A stretch of DNA of 64,000 nucleotides from Patescibacteria group bacterium (GCA_028717685.1 JAQUNI010000001.1:207451-271450), one strand, 5' to 3'; shown: positions 6,982 to 48,648, counted from the first letter of the stretch. The notes: generated by a model from the sequence alone, not told the origin. Numbers and translations: made by a program.

Positions 6982-7593
6982 TTATTCCACCAACCTTCCT
7001 TTAACAACAAGTCTCTTAAGTGGCGTTCCAACCGGCCAACAAGTCATTAGGGAAATGGTGGGCTCGGGAGTGGATGCTAACACCTGCACTTCATTTTCGG
7101 AAACAATTATTTTATCAATGACTCTATATAAATATTCTTTACCTTGATAATATACTTTGATTTCGTCATTTATTTCTAATTTACCCAAGAGAGCGAAAAT
7201 ATCTTTATAATCTCCTTTGCGCCAAATATAATCTGATGAATGGCCAAGGATAAAATAATTCCCTACCTCCCCTGAATTTGCCGTCCCGGGATAATGGACG
7301 ACGCCGTTCTCCAGACCCTTTTGAATCGTGCTCTCTTGGCTATTTTCCACCTCAACGACTGGCACATTCACATTAATCTTAGGGATGATGAGCCGAGTTT
7401 CCGCTGGAATCCCCTCCTCGCGAGAGGGCTTCTCTAAAATAGTCCGGATTACTTCCGCCTTGGGATATTTAGAATAAAAATAATATTCCGCCTGCTTCAT
7501 CAAAGCCTGATAATTGATCACTCCAAAAACTACGGCTAAAAACAAAACCGCGTAGATTATTCTTTTAATTAAACGGAGGGGGTGAAAAAACAT
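6982..7593 (-). CDS. sortase family transpeptidase
   Basis: N-terminal TM anchor; catalytic His motif ILGHS; active-site Cys in LMTCWP (TLxTC-like). Confidence 0.75.
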   Translation of the reverse strand: MFFHPLRLIKRIIYAVLFLAVVFGVINYQALMKQAEYYFYSKYPKAEVIRTILEKPSREEGIPAETRLIIPKINVNVPVVEVENSQESTIQKGLENGVVHYPGTANSGEVGNYFILGHSSDYIWRKGDYKDIFALLGKLEINDEIKVYYQGKEYLYRVIDKIIVSENEVQVLASTPEPTISLMTCWPVGTPLKRLVVKGRLVE

Positions 7594-7676: not shown

Positions 7677-8114
7677 TTATTTCAATGTTACCGTCGCTCC
7701 CGCCTCTTCTAGTTTCTTCTTAAGCTCTTCGGCTTCAGCCTTACCCATCTTGGCTTTAATCACTTTAGGGGAGCTATCCACAATATCCTTCGCTTCTTTT
7801 AGTCCCTGCCCGGTGATTTCGCGGACGAGTTTGATCACCGCGATTTTGGCATCGCCAGGGGCGGTCAGTTCCACATCCCACTCTGTCTTTTCTTCAGCAA
7901 CGCCCGCGGCCTCACCGCCCCCAGCAGGGGCGCCAGCGGCAGACATAGCCATAGGGGCGCTCGCAGAAACGCCAAATTTTTCTTCGAAAACCCTAACCAA
8001 CTCCGATAGGTCCAATACGGTCATCTTTCCTATTTCTTCCACAATTTTTTTGAACTTCTCTGGAACTTTAACCTTTTTTTCTTCCTTGATTTCTTCTTTT
8101 GTTTCCTCGGCCAT
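7677..8114 (-). CDS. rplL: 50S ribosomal protein L7/L12
   Basis: Typical NTD, Ala/Gly-rich hinge, and CTD ...[39 protein letters not shown]. Confidence 0.95.
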
Positions 8115-8164
8115 AAATTTTGTATAAAAGGGAGAATACGAATTATCAAAATCTTGATGAATTA

Positions 8165-8698
8165 TTATTCTGCGCCTTTTTCGCTAATATTTTTTAAAAT
8201 ATAAATTAAATTACGCAAGTTGCCCGCCAAAACATTAACAAAACCAGAAACCGGAGCGGCGATCGCGCCAACAACCCTGGCACGCATCTCATCGCGACCC
8301 GGAAGTCCAGCTAAACTTAAAATTTCTGTGTCCGCCAGGAAACGTTTATCTAAAATACCGCCTAAAATTTTCAAATCCTTATGCGCTTTTTTAAAATTAA
8401 CTAAAACGCGGGCAGGCGCGATCTCATCTTCTAAACCAAATGCCAGAGAAAGCGGCCCCTCTACCTTCACTTCTTCCTTTAAAACCTTCAGGTTTTTGTC
8501 CTGTCCAATGGCGATTCCGAAAAGCTTTTTTTTCATAACTTTCAGAACAGCATTCTCTTTTTTTAGACAACGGCGCAGATCTTGGATTTCAGAAACTTTA
8601 AGGTTTGTAAAGTCCGCAAAAACAACGGTTTTCATTTTGCCGAAAATATCGCGTAACCATTCTACTTCTTTTTCCTTTTGTTTTCTGGTTTTGGCCAT
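8165..8698 (-). CDS. rplJ: 50S ribosomal protein L10
   Basis: Directly upstream of rplL in the conserved order; L10-like sequence with the C-terminal L12-binding helix. Confidence 0.9.
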
Positions 8699-13222: not shown

Positions 13223-14644
13223 ATGAATACCAAAACCATTCTCAAATGGTGCGTGCCGCGCAAGAACAATCAATACCAACCTTACGCTCTGCGTAAAAAG
13301 GCGCTTACCTTTTATGTCGCCGTGATTTTCATACTGAAGGCGAGCGTCGGTTTTTTGTTTTTCGCTTTTCCGGAAACCGCCTATCTCTCCCAAGTGAGCA
13401 TTAAAGAAATCGTAGACCTCGCGAACCAATCCCGCGCCGAGGTAGGCCTTGCTCCCCTTAAACTGAATGCCAAATTAAATATCTCGTCCGCGGGAAAAGC
13501 CGAAGATATGATGACGAAACAATACTTTGCCCATACCTCGCCCGAGGGCGTGGAGCCTTGGTATTGGTTTGAGAAAGCGGGCTATCCCTACACCTATGCG
13601 GGAGAAAATTTGGCTCTCGGTTTTGAAACAAGCGCGGGCGTGCATCAAGCCTGGATGAATTCTAAAGGTCATCGCGACAATATTATCAATCCTAATTACA
13701 AAGAGATTGGCGTCGCGATTATTTACGGCAGTTTTGAAGGCAATTTCACCACGATTATTGTTCAGCATTTCGGCTCTGTTGAATCCACAACTCCCCAAGA
13801 AGTCCCTGCCTATCCGCCTCCGAAAAAAGAAATACCCGCGCCGACCGCTCCGCCTCAAACTCCCGCTGGTGCCGACCGCACGGCTCCCGCTCCCCCGCGC
13901 ATTCTTACTCCCGCTCCCCGCTACCTGACGAATAATAAAGAAGTGACCATCACGGGACAAGCCGAAGCGGAAAGCACGGTTTTAATCTATGAAAAGAACG
14001 AAAAGATCGGCCAGACCAAAGCTACTAAAAAGAACCGCTTTAATTTTGCTTCCGCCTCTGATTTTTCCGATGGCGAACATTCTTTCCGCGCCATGGCGGT
14101 AGATAAAGCAGGAAACCGCAGCGCTTTCTCTAAAAGCGTGGCGGTGGTCATTGACACAACTCCGCCGGTGATTGATATGGAAAAATCATATATCCTGCCT
14201 ACTTATCTTAATCCGCTTAAAACCTTTGATGTCTTCGCTTATGTGACTGGCGAACCGGTGGAAGTCAAAGCCACTGCCGGTCAAAACGAGGTTATGCTCA
14301 AGGAAAAAGAGGCGCATCTCTATCGCGAAGTCATTAACCAATCCACTGGCGGGGTTTGGGTTCAAGCAAAAGATGCCGCCGGCAATATTACCAAAGCAAA
14401 ATTAAACTTTACCCAAAATGTCAGCAGTGAGCGCGACCTGCATCTGGTAGACTCCGACAATAGCTGGACGCTTTTCTTAAACACACTGGATCAAACTAGC
14501 CGCAATCTTATTATAGTCTTTAGCGCCGCGATTGCGATTCTTCTGCTTGTAAATATTCTTGTGCATATCAAAAAACAAAACAGTAAAACCATCAGCTCTG
14601 TCCTGCTGATTATCCTTATTAACGGTCTTCTCCTGGCGGTTTAA
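13223..14644 (+). CDS. secreted/membrane-anchored CAP (SCP/PR-1, YkwD-like) domain protein with Pro-rich linker, Ig-like region and C-terminal TM
   Basis: CAP motifs ...HTSPEGVEPWYWFEKAGY...GENLA...HQAWMNSKGHRDNIINPNYKEIGVAI...; PAYPPPKKEIPAPTAPP linker; C-terminal hydrophobic helix. Confidence 0.7.
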   Translation: MNTKTILKWCVPRKNNQYQPYALRKKALTFYVAVIFILKASVGFLFFAFPETAYLSQVSIKEIVDLANQSRAEVGLAPLKLNAKLNISSAGKAEDMMTKQYFAHTSPEGVEPWYWFEKAGYPYTYAGENLALGFETSAGVHQAWMNSKGHRDNIINPNYKEIGVAIIYGSFEGNFTTIIVQHFGSVESTTPQEVPAYPPPKKEIPAPTAPPQTPAGADRTAPAPPRILTPAPRYLTNNKEVTITGQAEAESTVLIYEKNEKIGQTKATKKNRFNFASASDFSDGEHSFRAMAVDKAGNRSAFSKSVAVVIDTTPPVIDMEKSYILPTYLNPLKTFDVFAYVTGEPVEVKATAGQNEVMLKEKEAHLYREVINQSTGGVWVQAKDAAGNITKAKLNFTQNVSSERDLHLVDSDNSWTLFLNTLDQTSRNLIIVFSAAIAILLLVNILVHIKKQNSKTISSVLLIILINGLLLAV

Positions 14645-14746: not shown

Positions 14747-14776
14747 AACACCCTTAAATAAGTAAGAGGGTGTTTT
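14747..14776 (+). terminator. intrinsic terminator (AACACCCT...AGGGTGTTTT family)
   Basis: Hairpin aacacccttaaataagtaagagggtgtttt; a near-identical hairpin lies at 19937..19965 after the last gene of the SipW locus. Confidence 0.6.
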
Positions 14777-14790
14777 AATTATTAAAAATA

Positions 14791-14820
14791 TTGACAGCAT
14801 GAAATAAAAAAGAATATAAT
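14791..14820 (+). promoter_or_regulatory. near-consensus sigma70-type promoter (TTGACA-18-TATAAT)
   Basis: ttgacagcatgaaataaaaaagaatataat; followed ~100 nt later by a terminator hairpin with no ORF between. Confidence 0.6.
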
Positions 14821-14826
14821 GGTAGC

Positions 14827-14925
14827 GGATAGGTAAATACCCCTCCCAAAAGAGTATGAGCTTATTCCAGCCTTCAGGGAGCCCTTGATTTTGAAGAAAG
14901 CTTCCGGAAGGCTTTTTATTATTTT
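14827..14925 (+). ncRNA. candidate ~100 nt small RNA (promoter-to-terminator unit, no ORF)
   Basis: Perfect promoter at 14791-14820; hairpin aaagcttccggaaggcttttt plus T-run at ~14897-14930; longest internal ORF 10 codons without an SD. Confidence 0.35.
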
Positions 14926-15092
14926 TTTAAAGAAACTGTGAACAACTTAAAACAAAAAACGCCTTTAAATAAACAAGAGAGTGTTTTAATAAAGCGAAAG
15001 GCGAAAAGTGTAAAACGTAAAACCGCAACTTAAAGCTCAAAGCTTTACACTTTGCGCTTTGCACTTTGCGCTTTCATCTGTGGATAACTTTT

Positions 15093-15121
15093 TGACTCCT
15101 TTAATCAAGATAGTATATAAT
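15093..15121 (+). promoter_or_regulatory. sigma70-type promoter (TTGACT-17-TATAAT) for the SipW-locus gene at 15437
   Basis: ttgactcctttaatcaagatagtatataat; leaves a ~300 nt leader containing several terminator-like hairpins. Confidence 0.55.
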
Positions 15122-15436
15122 GATATATCTTTCCTAGTTTAAGCCTCAAAAATAAAAAATAATGTTTCAGAAAGAGCAAGGAAACCGAGTCAAAAAAAAT
15201 CAATTCAGCTGGGGGCTCGTTTATATTTTATTGATAAAAAAACAACGCAGTCGAAAGTCCTTTTGTTAATTCAAGGGACTTTTTAAATAAAATAAGTTTG
15301 CTTTCTAGCCTCTTTGAAATCAAAGAGGTAAACAACAAAGACTTTAACAAGGAGGGATAAGTCTCCCCCTTTTTATTTTAAAGGGTAAAGGCAAGCTTAT
15401 TTCTTAAAAATTATTTATGAAAGGAGGTGTTAAAAA

Positions 15437-16657
15437 ATGAAAAAAATTATTCTAGGCTTAGTTGCTGGGGTCGCTATAGTCGGCGGCGTCGTGGCGATGT
15501 CCGCCTTTGAGGCGCATGTCGTCAATGTTACCGCCAAGATTGAGAACGCGTTGGATGTACCCATTACAGAACTCGATTTTGGTACAGTCTTCCCAGAAGA
15601 AGTGCTCAACAAAACCATGGCTGTGAACTTAAGCGAATCGTTTATGGAGCAAGCCCAATGCAGTACGACAAGCATTATTGAAAATGGCGGGTTTGAAATT
15701 CCAGAAGTTACAAACCCTGCCAAATGGGAGACATTTCCTGTAGTCCCTGGTTGGAATATTACATGGGTAAATCCTGGAGATGCCCCTGCTCCTGCTTTGA
15801 TTGAATACCAGGCAGGTGTTAATGGTTGGAATTCTCATGAGGGTAATCAATGGACAGAGCTTGCCTCTGATTGGGGTCAAGCGCCAAACAGCTTGCCCAA
15901 TGACGCGCGGGTAATCATTTCCCAAGAAATATCAACCACAGTCGGCGCGAAATACACATTAACCTATTGGTATTCGGGCCGTCCGGGCCAGTCAAGCGCT
16001 GATAATATGATGGATGTAAGAGTAAATGGCATAACTAAACCATACGCAGAAAACAATCCCGGAGCCAATACGAATTGGAAAGAAGACAGCATTGAATTTG
16101 TCGCAACTGCCAGCACAACCAAAATTGAATTTCAAGGAACTGGAGCAAACCATACCTACGGAATGTTCCTAGACGATGTCAGCTTGGTTGAATGCGGTCG
16201 GGTCAGTACGGTTGATTACGTCTTGCGCCAGAAGCCCAAGTGTGTTGACGACAATAATTCTTCTATTCATCCCCAAGTCACTCATAACACAAATGGCGAT
16301 TTTGCTTGCCCTGAAGGTTCAACGATGATGCCCTTGCTCTGTCCTTATCTCTCTAAATCAGAAACAACGAATGATGGCGGCGAAGGGCAAAATAATGATG
16401 GTGTCGCGATTGCGGCCTTCCATGGCCCACTGACTGGATGGACAATGAAAAACACAGAAGACTGGCAAACTGGCGGCACATTATCCGCGGCGATCGGAGA
16501 CATTATGGATGAATGGTTAATTGATCTCCATGCCCCCTGCTTTAAAGGTATGTGCGCCCAAGACAATAAGATTGACCCAGAGTACCAAGCCGATCCAGCA
16601 CTTGAACACGCAGTCTTTGGCTGTGATCTCTGGCTGGAAGTGACAGGTATTGATTAA
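15437..16657 (+). CDS. secreted protein, candidate SipW-cognate substrate: signal peptide, conserved N-terminal strand (FEAHVVNVTAKIEN), TasA-like 'LDFG' segment, jelly-roll lectin-like (DUF642/choice-of-anchor-like) domain, C-terminal WLIDL...GCD motif
   Basis: Signal peptide MKKIILGLVAGVAIVGGVVAMSA; ENGGFE...W..F..VPGW jelly-roll pattern; C-terminus EWLIDLHAPCFKGMCAQD...GCDLWLEV shared with 19112..19906. Confidence 0.6.
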   Translation: MKKIILGLVAGVAIVGGVVAMSAFEAHVVNVTAKIENALDVPITELDFGTVFPEEVLNKTMAVNLSESFMEQAQCSTTSIIENGGFEIPEVTNPAKWETFPVVPGWNITWVNPGDAPAPALIEYQAGVNGWNSHEGNQWTELASDWGQAPNSLPNDARVIISQEISTTVGAKYTLTYWYSGRPGQSSADNMMDVRVNGITKPYAENNPGANTNWKEDSIEFVATASTTKIEFQGTGANHTYGMFLDDVSLVECGRVSTVDYVLRQKPKCVDDNNSSIHPQVTHNTNGDFACPEGSTMMPLLCPYLSKSETTNDGGEGQNNDGVAIAAFHGPLTGWTMKNTEDWQTGGTLSAAIGDIMDEWLIDLHAPCFKGMCAQDNKIDPEYQADPALEHAVFGCDLWLEVTGID

Positions 16658-16863
16658 GCTAATATAGCCAATTAACTAACACAGGTACAACCTTTAATTC
16701 CCTTTAGACAACTTTCATTGTTGATCGTTTCCCCTCTGCTCCTGCGCAAGGCGGACGGAGGGGAGGGATTAGTAATGAAATCATTAAAAAAATTATGCTT
16801 GAAAATAATTCGGAGGAAGAAAAGAACCCCGAAAACGAAGCGGAAAATCCAGTCCAAAAGTTA

Positions 16864-17307
16864 ATGTCCGAAAAGAAGGCAGAAAAGCCCAAAAGAAAAA
16901 TAAAGGTCGGGCGCATTATTGGCTATGTAATCATTGCAATTATCGCGGTCTTTATTGTTGTCCAGCTTTTGAGCGCTTCCTATTATAAGATGACTGTCAA
17001 TGTCGTGGAGGGTGAAAATGTGGTCGGGGTCAATCCCACGGCGGAAAAATTGGATTTTGGCGATCTTTCCCGCGGCAGTAGTATGACCCGCTACGTAACT
17101 TTAAAAAGTGCGGGAAAATCCCCAAGTTACATTATAGTCTGGAAATTTGGCGGCGTTGCCTCGCTCGTTAAGGTGGAAAAAAACTACTTTACACTTAATT
17201 CCAGTGAAGAGGTAAAAATTACTTTTTCTCTTACCATTCCTCCTTCCGCCCAAATCAAACACTATAACGGTCAAGTGATTATTTTCAAACTACCCAAGAT
17301 TTTCTAA
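16864..17307 (+). CDS. small secreted/membrane-anchored protein, candidate SipW-cognate (K-rich n-region, TM, 'YYKMTVNVVEGEN' strand, 'KLDFGDLSRG' segment)
   Basis: The track ORF starts at 16795; Met24 (MSEKKAEKPKRKIKVGRIIGYVII...) fits a signal-peptide n/h region better; start uncertain (see findings). Confidence 0.45.
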   Translation: MSEKKAEKPKRKIKVGRIIGYVIIAIIAVFIVVQLLSASYYKMTVNVVEGENVVGVNPTAEKLDFGDLSRGSSMTRYVTLKSAGKSPSYIIVWKFGGVASLVKVEKNYFTLNSSEEVKITFSLTIPPSAQIKHYNGQVIIFKLPKIF

Positions 17308-17313
17308 GTAAGT

Positions 17314-17805
17314 ATGAAAAAGATTTTGCAATATTTTCAAAAGCGTAAGGAAGAAAAATGCACACAAGCGGAAGAATTAAGTAAGAGGCAAAAAATTTTC
17401 CGGAAAGCTATCGGTTATCTATTTTATGTTGGGATTTTAATTGGACTCTTCTACGGTACACCCAAAATTCTATCCTATCTTCTAAATACTAAATATCCCT
17501 TTGCGTCAATTACATCGGGGTCAATGTGGCCAGTCTTAAAGAAGGGAGATCTCGCCTTAATCTGCGGCGTAGAACCCTCTGAAATCAAAACGAATGATGT
17601 TGTGGTTTTCCCTAATGAAAATGGCGCTTTAGCAATCCATCGGGTGATTAAAATAAATGGCGATAAAATTATTACCAAAGGCGACGCCAACACTAAAGAA
17701 GATAAACCTATTAACCGCTCCGACATCTTGGGTCGACTTTGCACAGTGGGTTCCCTTGAGGCAAAAATCCCAAAAATCGGATTAATCGCTCCACTTTTTC
17801 ACTAA
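17314..17805 (+). CDS. signal peptidase I, Sec11/SipW type (family S26B)
   Basis: N-terminal TM; Ser box SGSMWPVL (compare the SGSMEP box of Sec11/SipW-type S26B peptidases); KGDAN...D box; size ~160 aa typical of SipW. Confidence 0.7.
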   Translation: MKKILQYFQKRKEEKCTQAEELSKRQKIFRKAIGYLFYVGILIGLFYGTPKILSYLLNTKYPFASITSGSMWPVLKKGDLALICGVEPSEIKTNDVVVFPNENGALAIHRVIKINGDKIITKGDANTKEDKPINRSDILGRLCTVGSLEAKIPKIGLIAPLFH

Positions 17806-17812
17806 ATTATTT

Positions 17813-19090
17813 ATGCCAAAGATGAGTAGCAAAAATAAGTATTTGACTCTTGGTCTCCAAACACTAGGAATATTTATTGTTTTTGTTTTAGCTTTTTTCT
17901 GGGCAAATAAATCATTTGCTTATGAAGCGCATGTGATTGGCGTAACAGCGATGTTTCAAAATTATGTTTGCGGCGATGGCAATCTCAATCCCGGCGAAGA
18001 ATGCGATGACGGCAACAACACTAATGGCGATGGCTGTTCGGCGACTTGCGTCCTTGAGAAAACACCTAGTTGCATGAAAATTAACGAGGTCTATTACTAT
18101 CCAGATGATGCGCATGGCGGCGGGGATGCCGAATGGATTGAGCTTTATAATGCTTGCGAATATCAAGTTAATCTTAAAAATTGGTATTTGAAAGACAACA
18201 CTCAAACGGAAACCATCCATCAAAATTATATTATTGACCCCAGTCAATTTGTAGTTCTCGCGCCCAATGCTTCAATTTGGGAAAAATACTGGGATATTAC
18301 CCCTACGAACGCCATAAAAATCGCTTTGGGCGGCGGACAAAAAATGTTTAATAATCTAGCGAATGACGGCGATCGGGTTTTCCTTTATGATAATCACGAT
18401 AATGAGATTGACGCAGTAAGCTGGGGCGCGGATACAACCGCTTTTGACCCGAGCGTCCCCGGTGTTACCGAAGGTCATTCTATCGCCCGTAAAACAAAAG
18501 GTGTGGATACCGATACAGCAGACGACTGGGGAGATTTACCTACACCCAACCCGGGCACAAATCCCCATTCAACAATCCAAACAACTGTTCCTGAACCGCC
18601 CAAATTACAAACCAGTAATCTTAATATCGCTGGCGACAGCACGCCGATAATAACTGACACGACTGTGGGCGATGCCGATGATTCCACGCCCGCGACCAAG
18701 AATAACATAATAACCGACCCTGGCGATTCTACGCCCGCGACTGATACCCTTGAGGTAAAAGAACAGGAAGATATATCCCCTGCCTTAGAATCAAATGAAA
18801 ACCAAGAAGATAATGATAGCGCGGAAAATCCTGGTGAAACAGAAGATATTTCTCCTCCCTCCGGTTCTGATGACTCTCAAACCGATTTAACGCAAGAAGA
18901 CCCTGTAACAGACAATACGCCACCTGCTGCTAATAAAGAAGACATCAATAACACTGATTCATCTCTATCCCCGCCTGAAAATCCAGAGCCAGAAGAGGAA
19001 ACCAGTCCAACCAATAACCCAGAATCAAATTCTTCTTCTGAATCCCCTCCCCCTAACCCCGCAGAAGGTACGGAAAATAATCCCTCTTAA
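17813..19090 (+). CDS. secreted protein, candidate SipW-cognate: signal peptide, conserved strand (YEAHVIGVTA), Cys-rich repeat (CGDG...GEECDDGN..GDGCS..C), lamin-tail domain (INEVYY...EWIELYN), long acidic S/T/P/D/E-rich tail
   Basis: Motifs read directly from the translation; LTD signature INEV..EWIELYN..W.L.D; the tail is ~170 aa of low-complexity acidic sequence. Confidence 0.6.
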   Translation: MPKMSSKNKYLTLGLQTLGIFIVFVLAFFWANKSFAYEAHVIGVTAMFQNYVCGDGNLNPGEECDDGNNTNGDGCSATCVLEKTPSCMKINEVYYYPDDAHGGGDAEWIELYNACEYQVNLKNWYLKDNTQTETIHQNYIIDPSQFVVLAPNASIWEKYWDITPTNAIKIALGGGQKMFNNLANDGDRVFLYDNHDNEIDAVSWGADTTAFDPSVPGVTEGHSIARKTKGVDTDTADDWGDLPTPNPGTNPHSTIQTTVPEPPKLQTSNLNIAGDSTPIITDTTVGDADDSTPATKNNIITDPGDSTPATDTLEVKEQEDISPALESNENQEDNDSAENPGETEDISPPSGSDDSQTDLTQEDPVTDNTPPAANKEDINNTDSSLSPPENPEPEEETSPTNNPESNSSSESPPPNPAEGTENNPS

Positions 19091-19111
19091 ACTCTCTGTG
19101 TATATAATTTT

Positions 19112-19906
19112 ATGATTAAGTTTGACCGCAAATTAAAACGAGTCCTCTTTTCTCCCCAAGAAAAAAGTTTTAGGACTAAATTATTTATTTTCTTAACAGG
19201 AGCAATAACCCTCGTTTTATTTTTCTTCGTTCTGCAAGAAGAAACAACGCGCGTCTCGGCGCAAGCCTTGCCTATTGCTGTCTCAATGAATCATATTGAT
19301 TTTGGTTTGGTCTTTCCCGGGGAGAGTCTGGAAAAAAACTTTATTGTTTATCTGGCCAATGGTCAAACCGAAAAAGTAAATTACAGTTTAATTCAAAGGA
19401 GAAAGCCCCTGCCGCCTGAATCCAAAATTGAGGAAGATCCAAATATGCCCGGTTTCTATCGCGACCTCTGCCCCTTTCTCACCAAAACCACCAAAGAGGG
19501 GGAAGGTGATTTGGAAATCGCAGCGTCGGTGACACCCACCACTGATCTTACCGATAAATGGCTGATTGACTTGGCAGTACCAGCGTTGGAAGGCTATGTG
19601 GCTCAAGAACACGGTGATAAGATAGTGAAGATTGCCGGCGACTATGGCTGTGATATCGTGATTGATATTGAGTCGAATGGTAATGGTACAGACGGAAATG
19701 GAGCTGGCGGCGGTCCAGAATGGTTTTGGCAGGATATGAATCTTGCGGGAGCCATGGAAATAGCTACCTCTCCAATCAAAAAAGTTGTGCAGGCAGCAGT
19801 CAAATTACCGGCTAAACTCCCCCGCGTTGGCGCGTGGGGCAGCCTTATTGCCGCCTCAATGGGCTTAATCGCGACAGCAGCCTTTTATAGAAGGAATAAA
19901 AAGTGA
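19112..19906 (+). CDS. secreted protein, candidate SipW-cognate TasA/camelysin-like: signal-anchor, 'IDFGLVFPGESLEKNFIVYLANG' segment, WLIDL...GCD motif, Gly/Asn-rich segment, C-terminal hydrophobic helix plus basic tail
   Basis: IDFG..PGE...F.V.LANG resembles the TasA N-terminal NLKPGD...F.F.NNG; DKWLIDLAVPALEGYVAQE...GCDIVIDIE is shared with 15437..16657; C-terminus GSLIAASMGLIATAAFYRRNKK looks like a membrane anchor. Confidence 0.55.
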   Translation: MIKFDRKLKRVLFSPQEKSFRTKLFIFLTGAITLVLFFFVLQEETTRVSAQALPIAVSMNHIDFGLVFPGESLEKNFIVYLANGQTEKVNYSLIQRRKPLPPESKIEEDPNMPGFYRDLCPFLTKTTKEGEGDLEIAASVTPTTDLTDKWLIDLAVPALEGYVAQEHGDKIVKIAGDYGCDIVIDIESNGNGTDGNGAGGGPEWFWQDMNLAGAMEIATSPIKKVVQAAVKLPAKLPRVGAWGSLIAASMGLIATAAFYRRNKK

Positions 19907-19936
19907 AATTCTAGGGAATTTTTTTTATTTATTAAA

Positions 19937-19965
19937 AACACCCCTAAAGAATAAGAGGGTGTTTT
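19937..19965 (+). terminator. intrinsic terminator (AACACCCC...AGGGTGTTTT family)
   Basis: aacacccctaaagaataagagggtgtttt; same stem and loop family as 14747..14776. Confidence 0.6.
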
Positions 19966-19968
19966 AAT

Positions 19969-20093
19969 TAATTTTCAATTTTCATTAAATTTTCAATGTA
20001 TTAATTTTCAAACTTTTTTGTTGATGAAAGTTTTTAAAAATTAAAAATTAAAAGAATTTAATAGAAATTAGAAATTGAAAATTAAAAATTATT
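19969..20093. repeat. heptad-repeat palindromic element (TTTCAAT / GAAATTA arms)
   Basis: aattttcaattttcattaaattttcaatg ... aatttaatagaaattagaaattgaaaattaaaaatta. Confidence 0.6.
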
Positions 20094-20431
20094 CGTCTGT
20101 GGATAACTTTCTTGAATCAAATCTTAAACAAAAATATAATAAAAGTGCGTGTTTCCGCTAGTGTCAAATATTGTCATGCCGTTCTTTCGCTCCTTAGCGT
20201 CTAGCGCCAAAAGGAGCAATTGCTTATCCGCCTTTTTAGGACAAAGGCGGACACCATGCCTCTTGGAGAACTTATATTTTTTATGCGCGTGTTGAGTAAG
20301 TTTTCCAAGAGCGCTTTTTTTTGACAAAAAAAATTAAAAATGGTATTATAGAAAGGCTTTATTCTAAGAACTTGTTATTATTCTTGCTATTATTTTGGTA
20401 CATTTTATTTCAAAAATAAGGAGAGCAAAAA

Positions 20432-21029: not shown

Positions 21030-22103
21030 CTATAAAAGCAGGTCGTTAGGAAAATTATCGCTTATTACGGGCTTTTGTCTAACCTTCAGATAAGAAGAAG
21101 CATTTGCTTTAGCTTTAGCATAATCAAAAGCTTCTTCTATAACCACATCTTTTCTTTCTGGTTGTACTCCGTCTTTATCATGGTCATATTTATCTGCCAA
21201 GCCTTGCAACATTCCTTCATTGACAAAATAACGGGTGAACACTCCTTCGCCATCTTGGATTCCATTGCCATCCACATCCTCCCCGGCAGTGGAATAGACA
21301 TAAGCTGATTGAGTTTCTCCGGTTGCCATAGAAACTACTCTTCCAACGCTTGCCACATCGTTCATTCCGCCAGCAAGGCAAGAGTCAAAAACAAAAGCAA
21401 TCCTTGTAGTAGCAAAACCATCAAACCAATTTCTTAGTTCCCCGTCCCATATGTAAGTTATGTTATTCTCTGTATTAGCTTCGGTGTTCCAAACAACAAT
21501 GCCTTCATCTGTGAGTTCACTGTCTCCGTCCATAGCTGTCCCTTTTGTTCCATGTCCGCTGAAAAAGAATACCACTTCATCGCCCGATATAGCATGACCT
21601 TTAATATCCATTATAGCATTATAAATCTTTTCGCGGGTTGGAATACTATAGGCAACACTACCAAGGTTAGGACCAGTAGTACCTCCGTCGTCCTTAAACA
21701 ATTTGATATTTTCTGGTTTATATCCATAAAGCTCGATAAGAGCTTTATACATATGCAGTGAATCTCCATCGGACTGGCAGAGGTCAAGGTTTGTGCCTGG
21801 ATAATCACAAATTCCGATTATCACCGCATATTTATTACCTGTTGCCGGCGCGCCTAAAATTCCAGTGGCTGCGCTCCCCGTTTTAGAAGGAGGAGAAGGT
21901 TTGCCCTTTCCCTTACCCACATCTTCAGAAAAAACTTTCTTTACCACCTCTATATTAGTAGCAGGAATGGGTTTAGGCGCTTCTCTCTTCGGACCCTGCT
22001 GTTTTTCAGATGGCGCTGCTTGAGAGACTAAAACTCCGGATAAAATCAAAGTTAATCCGAGTATCGCTATACTAGATACTAAAATACTTAATCCTTTTTT
22101 CAT
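21030..22103 (-). CDS. secreted caspase-like cysteine peptidase (Peptidase C14 family) with a C-terminal Asp-rich Ca-binding (dockerin/EF-hand-like) tail
   Basis: Signal peptide; His motif VVFFFSGHG and Cys motif AFVFDSCLAGG in the caspase order and spacing; tail DVDGNGIQDGEG ... DHDKDGV. Confidence 0.65.
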   Translation of the reverse strand: MKKGLSILVSSIAILGLTLILSGVLVSQAAPSEKQQGPKREAPKPIPATNIEVVKKVFSEDVGKGKGKPSPPSKTGSAATGILGAPATGNKYAVIIGICDYPGTNLDLCQSDGDSLHMYKALIELYGYKPENIKLFKDDGGTTGPNLGSVAYSIPTREKIYNAIMDIKGHAISGDEVVFFFSGHGTKGTAMDGDSELTDEGIVVWNTEANTENNITYIWDGELRNWFDGFATTRIAFVFDSCLAGGMNDVASVGRVVSMATGETQSAYVYSTAGEDVDGNGIQDGEGVFTRYFVNEGMLQGLADKYDHDKDGVQPERKDVVIEEAFDYAKAKANASSYLKVRQKPVISDNFPNDLLL

Positions 22104-30961: not shown

Positions 30962-31471
30962 CTATTTTTCAAATCCTCCGGTTACCCAATCAAACTCACT
31001 TTGCCAATTACGCCCAGAACAACTCCAACCGGGGCTATTCGGATGAGGATTACCGCTTGTCTCAATATCTACTACTCCTAAAACATAAAAGGCTCCTCGG
31101 GAAGCATCGCAACTATAACTCCCAGCAGGATAACGGTAATAGCGATAATTTCCACAATCATAATTATTGATCGGATCTTTTACGTCTTGGCTTAAGAATC
31201 CTGCCGTTCTTAAAGAAGAAATAAAATCACCATCTCCGGGAGTATCCCAACCACCACAACCCTGATAGTCTGAACTAGGATATAACCCATATTGATCATA
31301 ATACAGTGCTAAGGCAGTTATCAATTGTTTCATTGACGCTAATCTTTGGGCGTCTCGCGCTTTTTTTCGGGCATTGTTCACGGACACAGTCACGATTGTT
31401 GCCAGAAGACCGATGATCGCAATCACAACCAAAAGTTCAATCAGAGTAAACCCCGTTAAATGCCGCTTCAC
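30962..31471 (-). CDS. prepilin-type N-terminal cleavage/methylation domain protein (type IV pilin-like), probable GTG start
   Basis: Class III signal (V/M)KRHLTG|[17 protein letters not shown]; the track ORF (to 31627) adds a 52-aa N-terminal extension with no pilin leader features; GTG at ~31471 gives a canonical 7-aa leader. Confidence 0.7.
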
Positions 31472-31682
31472 GGCAATTTTACCAAAAGCAAAATTATTTA
31501 ATGGGGTAAACCCGATAGAAATTTTAGAACTTACAGCCTGGTGCCTATTGTTACCCTTTATTTCTAATGAGGTAAATTCCCTTGAATGCATTAAAGGATC
31601 AACGCGCTTTTTAGTTTTGCAAGACATAATCTTCTTGAACTAAAGGATGTTATTCGCGAATAACATCCTGAAATTTGTATTT

Positions 31683-48444: not shown

Positions 48445-48648
48445 TTTCGAACGAGAAAAATAATAAATTCTTTTGAAAATTGGGGAAAATTTTTGTAATT
48501 TCCTTTGCCACATAAAAGAATTTATTATCTCTACACACTGTTCTTATTTTAACCTTTTCTATAAAACTGTCAAGCGCCGCCATTCTGGCTTAGATAAAAG
48601 AAAAATAAAAAAACTGGGGATAACCTTAATAAAGTTGTCCACAGTTTT

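Follow-up and report, generated by a model that had tools for sequence, protein, structure and literature searches.

The closest described counterparts of the gene cluster dealt with here, which occupies positions 15437–19906 of a 64,000-nt stretch of a Patescibacteria metagenome-assembled genome (MAG; GCA_028717685.1, JAQUNI010000001.1:207451-271450; the whole stretch is referred to as “the window”) and whose five genes are lettered A to E in their order, are the tapA-sipW-tasA operon of Bacillus subtilis and the proteins recognized by TIGR04088. Both there and here, a dedicated signal peptidase of the S26B (Sec11/SipW) class is encoded among exported β-sandwich clients, a segment of the clients is conserved across the end of the signal peptide, and major, duplicated clients are accompanied by minor accessory ones; the clients of the present cluster, however, lie outside PF12389 and TIGR04088 and have a predicted ASH/PapD-like immunoglobulin (Ig) fold, the peptidase (C) reaches 39 bits against a SipW cutoff of 190, nothing there corresponds to B, an additional conserved Ig protein of the membrane, and the cluster is, among named sequences, restricted to Patescibacteria. 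Chaperone-usher pili (PapD-like chaperones, exchange of the N-terminal extension, Nte) are alike in their PapD/ASH-class Ig folds, in the amphipathic N-terminal strand on the subunits (predicted for the present ones) and in a subunit logic of “strand plus fold, strand only, fold only”, but differ in that no sequence relationship is detectable and in that the signal peptidase is part of the operon here; no usher or periplasmic chaperone families were seen among the scanned window products or among the Pfam marks on the called genes of six related loci (L001–L006). Sec11 (SEC11A/C; TIGR02228) shares with C its class, the best PDB matches, the Ser-His-Asp boxes and an N-terminal transmembrane (TM) anchor, whereas C is bacterial, small (163 aa) and encoded within a client operon instead of serving general secretion. 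Sortase-assembled pili with SipA/LepA differ as well, given that the cluster has no pilin-type sortase, that its A subunits have no LPxTG motif and that C keeps the catalytic residues which are missing from SipA/LepA of Gram-positive pili, while the enterococcal WxL/WxLIP complexes are set apart by the absence of WxL domains from the cluster.

A large part of bacterial diversity belongs to the Patescibacteria. The cultivated ones all live attached to other microbes, and the attachment molecules beyond type IV pili are described as largely unknown (PMC11623550). The cluster appears to be a conserved, lineage-specific surface system, the named members of which span several candidate phyla and the displayed domains of which seem to evolve fast; its product is probably a surface fibre or adhesin complex, and its role is likely attachment to a host cell or a surface. 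Three of the families involved (the module shared by A and E, B, and a signal bearing an invariant block) have no Pfam/NCBIfam model, and the block, present in about 430 representative proteins, amounts to a new and easily searchable N-terminal “sorting or assembly tag” that lets the clients of a bacterial Sec11-type peptidase be predicted from sequence. A preliminary description of the locus had already called it an apparently uncharacterised operon, and it is indeed a conserved, syntenic one for which the literature searches returned no description, i.e., no paper featuring the block motif or the cluster; Wang et al. (2022; PMC9245690) noted PF12389 homologues in Patescibacteria and nothing further.

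Gene order and distribution

All five open reading frames (ORFs) given in the preliminary description were found as it had them, oriented in one direction and tightly spaced (6 nt between B and C, 7 nt between C and D, 21 nt between D and E, and 137 nt between A and B), the B–C and C–D gaps in relatives often being -4 or -1 nt. E is 100% identical to the protein PHW01_01170 of a Patescibacteria MAG, which supports the earlier suggestion of a host from the Candidate Phyla Radiation; the same operon, about 92% identical at the nucleotide level, is found in a Candidatus Doudnabacteria relative.

Judging from named sequences, the cluster A(1–4 copies)-B-C-D-(E) is specific to Patescibacteria, and it was seen at ~90 independent loci. 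Thirteen of the 14 independent loci anchored on E have the order A(1–4)-B-C-D-E, the remaining one consisting of D-E only, and the named ones come from Doudna-, Nealson- and Buchananbacteria and Parcubacteria, Woesebacteria being found only among the E homologues. In a set of 80 metagenome loci anchored on B, for which the denominators vary by relationship, C follows B in 70/73 cases (the three apparent exceptions being two start-codon overlaps and one contig end), a block-bearing protein follows C in 47/57, and the gene immediately upstream of B is of the A or E type in 43/43; A is present in one to four copies, with a mode of three, where 6 kb of upstream sequence is available. Three more B-anchored loci have E upstream of B rather than after D. 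A scan of genome contigs by exact peptide patterns, an approach that under-samples taxonomic breadth, gave nine loci. The synteny across relatives is therefore strong, the opposite of the non-syntenic outcome that the preliminary description had named as counting against its proposal. An obligatory, translationally coupled D-E pair was also considered; it is seen in 15/15 E-anchored loci (the window included) but in 20/32 B-anchored ones, and the claim was weakened accordingly.

The invariant N-terminal block and the proteins that bear it

The feature common to the A- and D-type products is a short block placed directly after the signal helix. The preliminary description had proposed that the proteins flanking the peptidase are exported and have a common N-terminal signature, and both points stand: the strings FEAHVVNVTAKIEN (A), YEAHVIGVTAMFQN (D) and YYKMTVNVVEGEN (B) are there, as are the LDFG..P(G)E segments of A, B and E, and the similarity goes far beyond chance, the EAH..VTA block being present in all A- and D-types of 15 loci (the window and 14 relatives), where it reads [SA]-A-[FY]-EAH[VI][VI]N[VI]TA directly after a hydrophobic helix. 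The candidate cleavage sites named in the preliminary description are likewise present as strings of residues. In an exhaustive phmmer run of residues 1–75 of A against 1.84 billion representative proteins, 434 matches were obtained at an E-value ≤1e-3 (264 of them at ≤1e-10), always at the N-terminus, in proteins ranging from 61 to 1131 aa. The logo of 136 diverse A-type proteins out of the best 150 matches is [SA]-A-[FYW]-E-A-H-[VI]-[IV]-N-V-T-A; nine positions are free of variation, with E, A, H, N, V, T and A invariant, further I, E, N, A and L positions nearly so, and the residue directly after VTA free. The block is S22-A33 in A (SAFEAHVVNVTA; 15500–15535, + strand) and F35-A46 in D (nt 17915–17950, + strand); the few substitutions seen (N→G, T→I, H→S) are confined to D-types. 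E lacks the EAH block and has a degenerate counterpart, LQxxxTxVSA, of which V and A are near-invariant. The resulting architecture is a split one: A comprises block and module, D has the block with unrelated cargo, E is a module without the block, and B combines a cis strand with a domain.

Gene A (15437–16657, + strand; 406 aa) encodes a signal helix, the block and an Ig-like module into which, behind the second strand, a DUF642/choice-of-anchor-C domain is inserted (about residues 70–250; DUF642 32.3 bits, cutoff 27), and gene E (19112–19906, + strand; 264 aa) encodes a signal helix, a V-S-A linker, the Ig-like module and a C-terminal tail resembling a sorting signal. Their alignment makes A and E paralogues with a common module of ~150 aa that has two invariant cysteines and the conserved segments LDFG.VFP.E, QK.KP, LCP[FY]L[ST]K, W.IDL.VP...G...Q and [YF]GCD. 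Relatives of A differ in the insert or C-terminal extension, which may be VWA, DUF4215, SdrD-B or none. The insert itself (15730–16186) is only 40–55% identical to the orthologue at the related locus L007, the scaffold of A being 80–92% identical, and in a relative with ~92%-identical flanking DNA the figures are 96% for C, 91% for E, 88% for B and 87% for D. Such a difference (40–55% against 80–96% elsewhere) points to fast divergence of the inserted domain and, at the level of sequence comparison, is suggestive of diversifying selection or of a replaced domain.

At least 132 proteins belong to the E family. All named ones are Patescibacteria (Doudna-, Nealson-, Woesebacteria, Parcubacteria), and no Pfam model covers the module in any of them; 90/123 are bare modules no longer than 200 aa, and the block is absent from 109/114. 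The tripartite tail of the present E (19817–19903, + strand) consists of LPRVG, with V in place of the canonical T, 19 hydrophobic residues and RRNKK. Relatives with LPKTG, LPATG or LPRTG tails exist; sortase-like tails are, however, present in only 3/123 of the family, and E as a general cell-wall anchor was therefore dropped, the notion holding for this genome and not for the family. Three proteins encoded outside the window (P0008–P0010) have nearly the same last ~60 residues as E (GPEWFWQ...ATSPIKKV.QA.KLPAKLPRVGAW-TM-RRNKK), so that a C-terminal anchor cassette has seemingly been shuffled among the surface proteins of the lineage; the same three proteins show weak, sub-threshold TasA/BsaA-like similarity.

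Gene B (16795–17307, + strand; 170 aa from the first ATG) encodes an N-terminal TM helix followed by an ASH/PapD-like Ig domain, and its likely start is the internal ATG at 16864 (147 aa), the one chosen in the preliminary description, which better fits the homologues (about 135 aa). The family has at least 125 members and about 60% identity across classes. In profile comparisons, B matches the N-terminus of A with 55% probability (E-value 1e-4) over the TM segment, the strand and LDFG, and the module of E with 42% probability; B is thus probably a distant paralogue of the clients. Gene D (17813–19090, + strand; 425 aa) encodes a signal helix, the block, a Cys-rich acidic repeat, a lamin-tail domain and an acidic tail rich in Pro, Glu, Ser and Thr, with profile matches to LTD (62.5 bits) and TIGR02232 (49.1 bits); family scans found no Ig module in it, and its position in relatives is taken by block-bearing, module-less proteins with unrelated cargo. 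A D-type subfamily (L001, L003, L004, L005 and L006) carries a further conserved stretch right behind the block, HIC..ETRT.G[YF]WK[NT]H.E, which belongs to no family.

The signal peptidase and the predicted folds

Gene C (17314–17805, + strand; 163 aa with an N-terminal TM segment) exceeds the curated cutoffs of TIGR02228, the model of the archaeal/eukaryotic-type signal peptidase I (75.3 bits; 51.85), and Pfam Peptidase_S26 PF10502 (27.3 bits; 22.9), and its best solved relatives are human SEC11C and SEC11A (E-values of 4.6e-10 and 6e-9), with whose SGSMEP, VHRV and KGDNNAVDD boxes its SGSMWP, IHRV and KGDANTKED align. The catalytic Ser, the His that takes the place of Lys as general base and the GDN-box Asp are all intact, and C is, judging by these residues, a dedicated and apparently active signal peptidase of the Sec11/SipW (S26B) class, as the preliminary description had recognized from the SGSMWP and KGDAN..D boxes. 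It does not reach the cutoff of the Bacillus SipW equivalog model NF046067 (39.4 bits; 190), which makes it a member of the S26B class and not a SipW orthologue.

The AlphaFold models show a signal/TM helix and then an Ig-like β-sandwich (E: residues 1–188, an 88-sequence alignment, mean predicted local distance difference test (pLDDT) score of 85; B: 43 sequences, pLDDT 88.5). Their best fold matches are ASH/PapD-like, with figures of 8.5 for HYDIN, 8.6 for the VAP MSP domain, 8.5–8.6 for enterococcal WxLIP and about 7 for fimbrial chaperones, and the resemblance to donor-strand pilins is weak; as modelled, then, the A/E module and the B domain are ASH/PapD-like/MSP Ig β-sandwiches by fold. 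Profile membership in the ASH/choice-of-anchor-D families was missed (B: choice_anch_D 23.4 bits against 45, ASH 16.3 bits against 27; E: no family). The B segment YKMVVNVVEGEN, which contains the strand YYKMTVNVV (residues 39–48) and is homologous to the block, is modelled at high confidence as the first, integral strand of the sandwich.

How the products may act together

It is proposed tentatively, the chances of the proposal being judged a little short of even, that the block is a mature N-terminal strand linking subunits by β-strand complementation, and that the outcome is a surface fibre or complex with fast-evolving binding domains. By analogy with SipW, which cuts TasA at TWA↓AFND with an aromatic residue near +1, C would cleave at the small residues that immediately precede the block (SA↓F/Y-EAH), and the block would become the mature N-terminal amphipathic β-strand. 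Once exposed, this strand would engage the module of a second subunit in trans, by β-strand complementation or exchange, so that A subunits could chain head-to-tail; D, which has only the strand, and E, which has only the module, would be the caps at either end. The sortase-type tail of E in this genome would tie the assembly to the envelope, and it is this tail, taken with the sortase gene at 6982–7593, that suggests E to be the envelope-proximal end; the parts displayed for binding would be the grafted domains, DUF642-like in A and lamin-tail in D, and the hairpin after A could lift the output of A above that of the genes behind it, a common arrangement among major pilins. The split architecture of A, D and E speaks indirectly for the donor-strand idea, and the Ig fold class, being the one used by PapD-like chaperones, was counted in favour of the proposal, as were the peptidase identity, the operon structure, the synteny, the invariance of the block, the integral strand of B, the fast divergence of the A insert and the sortase gene in the window; if true, it would add another kind of donor-strand fibre. 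Several points nevertheless weigh against it: pairing in trans is purely inferred; the E module is modelled confidently as a complete seven-strand sandwich with no extra strand, and may not need complementing; B shows strand pairing in cis with the same linker length, so that A could be self-contained; a bulky residue (M, F or L) occupies position -3 of the site preceding the block, N-V-T-A↓x being by contrast a textbook -3/-1 site; at the position aligned to VTA, the near-invariant residues of E are V-S-A; sortase-type tails are rare in the E family; and E follows D in only 20 of the 32 B-anchored loci, about nine such clusters being without any E. A fuller version, namely that the cluster encodes an unrecognised Patescibacterial class of fibre, in which Ig subunits matured by a Sec11-type peptidase are joined by the EAHVINVTA strand, with D and E as caps and B as a platform or chaperone (i.e., a donor-strand system with neither an usher nor a subunit-linking sortase, devoid of sequence kinship to TasA, and employing hypervariable domains for episymbiont–host attachment), is rated as rather unlikely.

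As the main alternative, the block could be a recognition element or pro-region: the dedicated peptidase would read SA[FY]EAHVINVTA and cut after V-T-A, B would perhaps hold the substrate by β-augmentation, and the products would be independent surface proteins (adhesins, binding proteins) forming no polymer. Such an explanation, doubtful though it is, accounts for V at -3 and A at -1 being invariant, for the residue after VTA being the sole variable position of the 18-residue block, for the part common to A and D stopping exactly at VTA, and for E having a near-invariant V-x-A at the aligned position with equal spacing to the LDFG strand and a model that is a complete sandwich without the block strand; it would also imply an unusually strict peptidase–substrate code. 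The cut, however, would fall 12 residues past the hydrophobic core, which is far for the membrane-surface active site of an S26 enzyme going by what is generally known of signal peptidase I and the signal peptidase complex of the endoplasmic reticulum, the homologous segment of B is modelled as a structural strand, and the nine invariant positions of the block exceed the recognition needs of known signal peptidases. Processing is also the essence of another and considerably less probable explanation, whereby B and C would be the two subunits of one signal peptidase, akin to a pared-down bacterial version of the Sec11–Spc3 core of eukaryotes, and the cluster would be a processing module with its clients (special Patescibacterial envelope proteins) lacking any higher-order assembly. 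The constancy of the B–C pair (70/73 loci, the genes often overlapping), the standing of B as the best conserved of the components other than the enzyme (identity across classes is about 60%) and the closeness of C to SEC11A and SEC11C among solved structures all fit it, as does the modelled topology of B, a single TM helix with an external β-sandwich, which is that of Spc3; the fold matches lend the idea no specific support.

The explanation favoured in the preliminary description, that the flanking proteins are divergent TasA/camelysin homologues assembling into donor-strand fibres of the TasA type, does have the SipW-class peptidase within the operon and an aromatic residue at the putative +1 position, a trait of TasA-type signals, to recommend it, but is largely refuted at the family level and is now thought very improbable. 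Of the profile searches proposed along with it, that with Peptidase_S26 came out as expected for C, whereas PF12389 and TIGR04088 (the latter run on the first 70 aa) had no match in A, B, D or E even at an E-value ≤10, although B. subtilis TasA matched TIGR04088 (38 bits, cutoff 19) and the TasA equivalog in the same search. An hhalign comparison of a profile of short A-type proteins with TasA gave a probability of 5.7%, and the A- and E-family profiles found nothing among PDB sequences at an E-value ≤10. The expected TasA jelly roll gave way to ASH/PapD-like Ig sandwiches in the models, and “LDFG..PGE..F.V”, described as reminiscent of TasA, is no hallmark of it but the usual first strand of ASH/choice-of-anchor-D-type domains, an assignment that follows from the Ig models and the sub-threshold choice_anch_D match of B. 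Nor are there four TasA-like proteins, as D is devoid of any β-sandwich module.

Transcription signals and genomic neighbourhood

The near-consensus promoter reported in the preliminary description is borne out as a candidate: a consensus scan places a sigma-70-like candidate, TTGACT-18-TATAAT, at 15092–15121 (+ strand; 11/12 positions matched). Its 5' side is abutted by a 19-nt repeat, TTCATCTGTGGATAACTTT (15073–15091, + strand), whose general form is TTC[A/G]TCTGTGGATAACTTT and which recurs at 20092–20110 (+ strand), both copies lying directly 5' of promoter-like sites at the two sides of the operon (15092 and 20112); the repeat holds a DnaA-box-like 9-mer, TGTGGATAA, and a third, weaker copy is found at 48631–48645 (- strand). 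The promoter candidate is followed by a structured 5' leader of 315 nt (15122–15436, + strand; minimum free energy (MFE) of -74 kcal/mol, z -3.7) with a GGAGG ribosome-binding site just before the ATG; it is about 93% conserved in L007, and Rfam gave no known RNA element in it or in the upstream spacer at gathering scores and nothing convincing at an E-value ≤1. A stem-loop between A and B (16713–16780, + strand; MFE of the 143-nt spacer -40.7 kcal/mol, z -4.0), 87% conserved in L007, may serve to fix how much of A is made relative to the genes behind it, or to make the mRNA more stable.

A terminator-like hairpin (19936–19968, + strand; stem CACCCC...GAGGGTG followed by a T-run) closes the operon. 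It had been described as identical to another at 14747, behind the upstream gene, which is true of the 19 nt of the 3' arm and tail (100% match) and not of the 5' arm and loop, making the two near-identical only; a degenerate third copy lies at 14944–14990. Between that upstream gene, which encodes a CAP-domain protein, and the operon, positions 14791–14930 (+ strand) comprise a perfect (12/12) sigma-70 consensus promoter and the sequence of a two-hairpin transcript of ~105 nt ending in a U-run, a candidate small RNA that no Rfam family covers and of which the Doudnabacteria relative has a ~91%-conserved counterpart.

The genes around the operon are housekeeping ones (rplJ/rplL, mltG-like (YceG), tsf, rpsB, prfA, dnaE, thrS, gyrB and pheST). 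A sortase gene (6982–7593, - strand; PF04203, 90.6 bits, cutoff 26.6), about 8 kb upstream of the operon and about 12 kb from E, encodes a possible partner in trans for the tail of E. The CAP-domain gene just upstream of the operon (13223–14644, + strand) encodes a secreted protein that combines a CAP/YkwD domain with a Big_13 Ig domain and, at the C-terminus, a TM segment. In three unrelated loci (L003, L004 and L006), CAP-domain genes likewise lie no more than a few kb away from the cluster. Just downstream of the operon, a caspase-like protein with a signal peptide is encoded at 21030–22103 (- strand; Peptidase_C14, 42.9 bits), and about 11 kb downstream there is a gene for a type IV pilin-like protein with the N_methyl motif (30962–31627, - strand), from which it follows that the organism also has the usual Patescibacterial pilus genes. 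The rplJ-rplL pair lies within a few kb of the cluster both here (7677–8698, - strand) and in the Nealsonbacteria locus (L001, 1027–2397), which hints at an old chromosomal neighbourhood of the two. A gene resembling those of the bAvd/23S-rRNA-IVP family, to which the accessory protein of diversity-generating retroelements belongs, is situated between B and C in L006 (6036–6431) and between rplJ and rplL beside the cluster in L001 (1538–1915).

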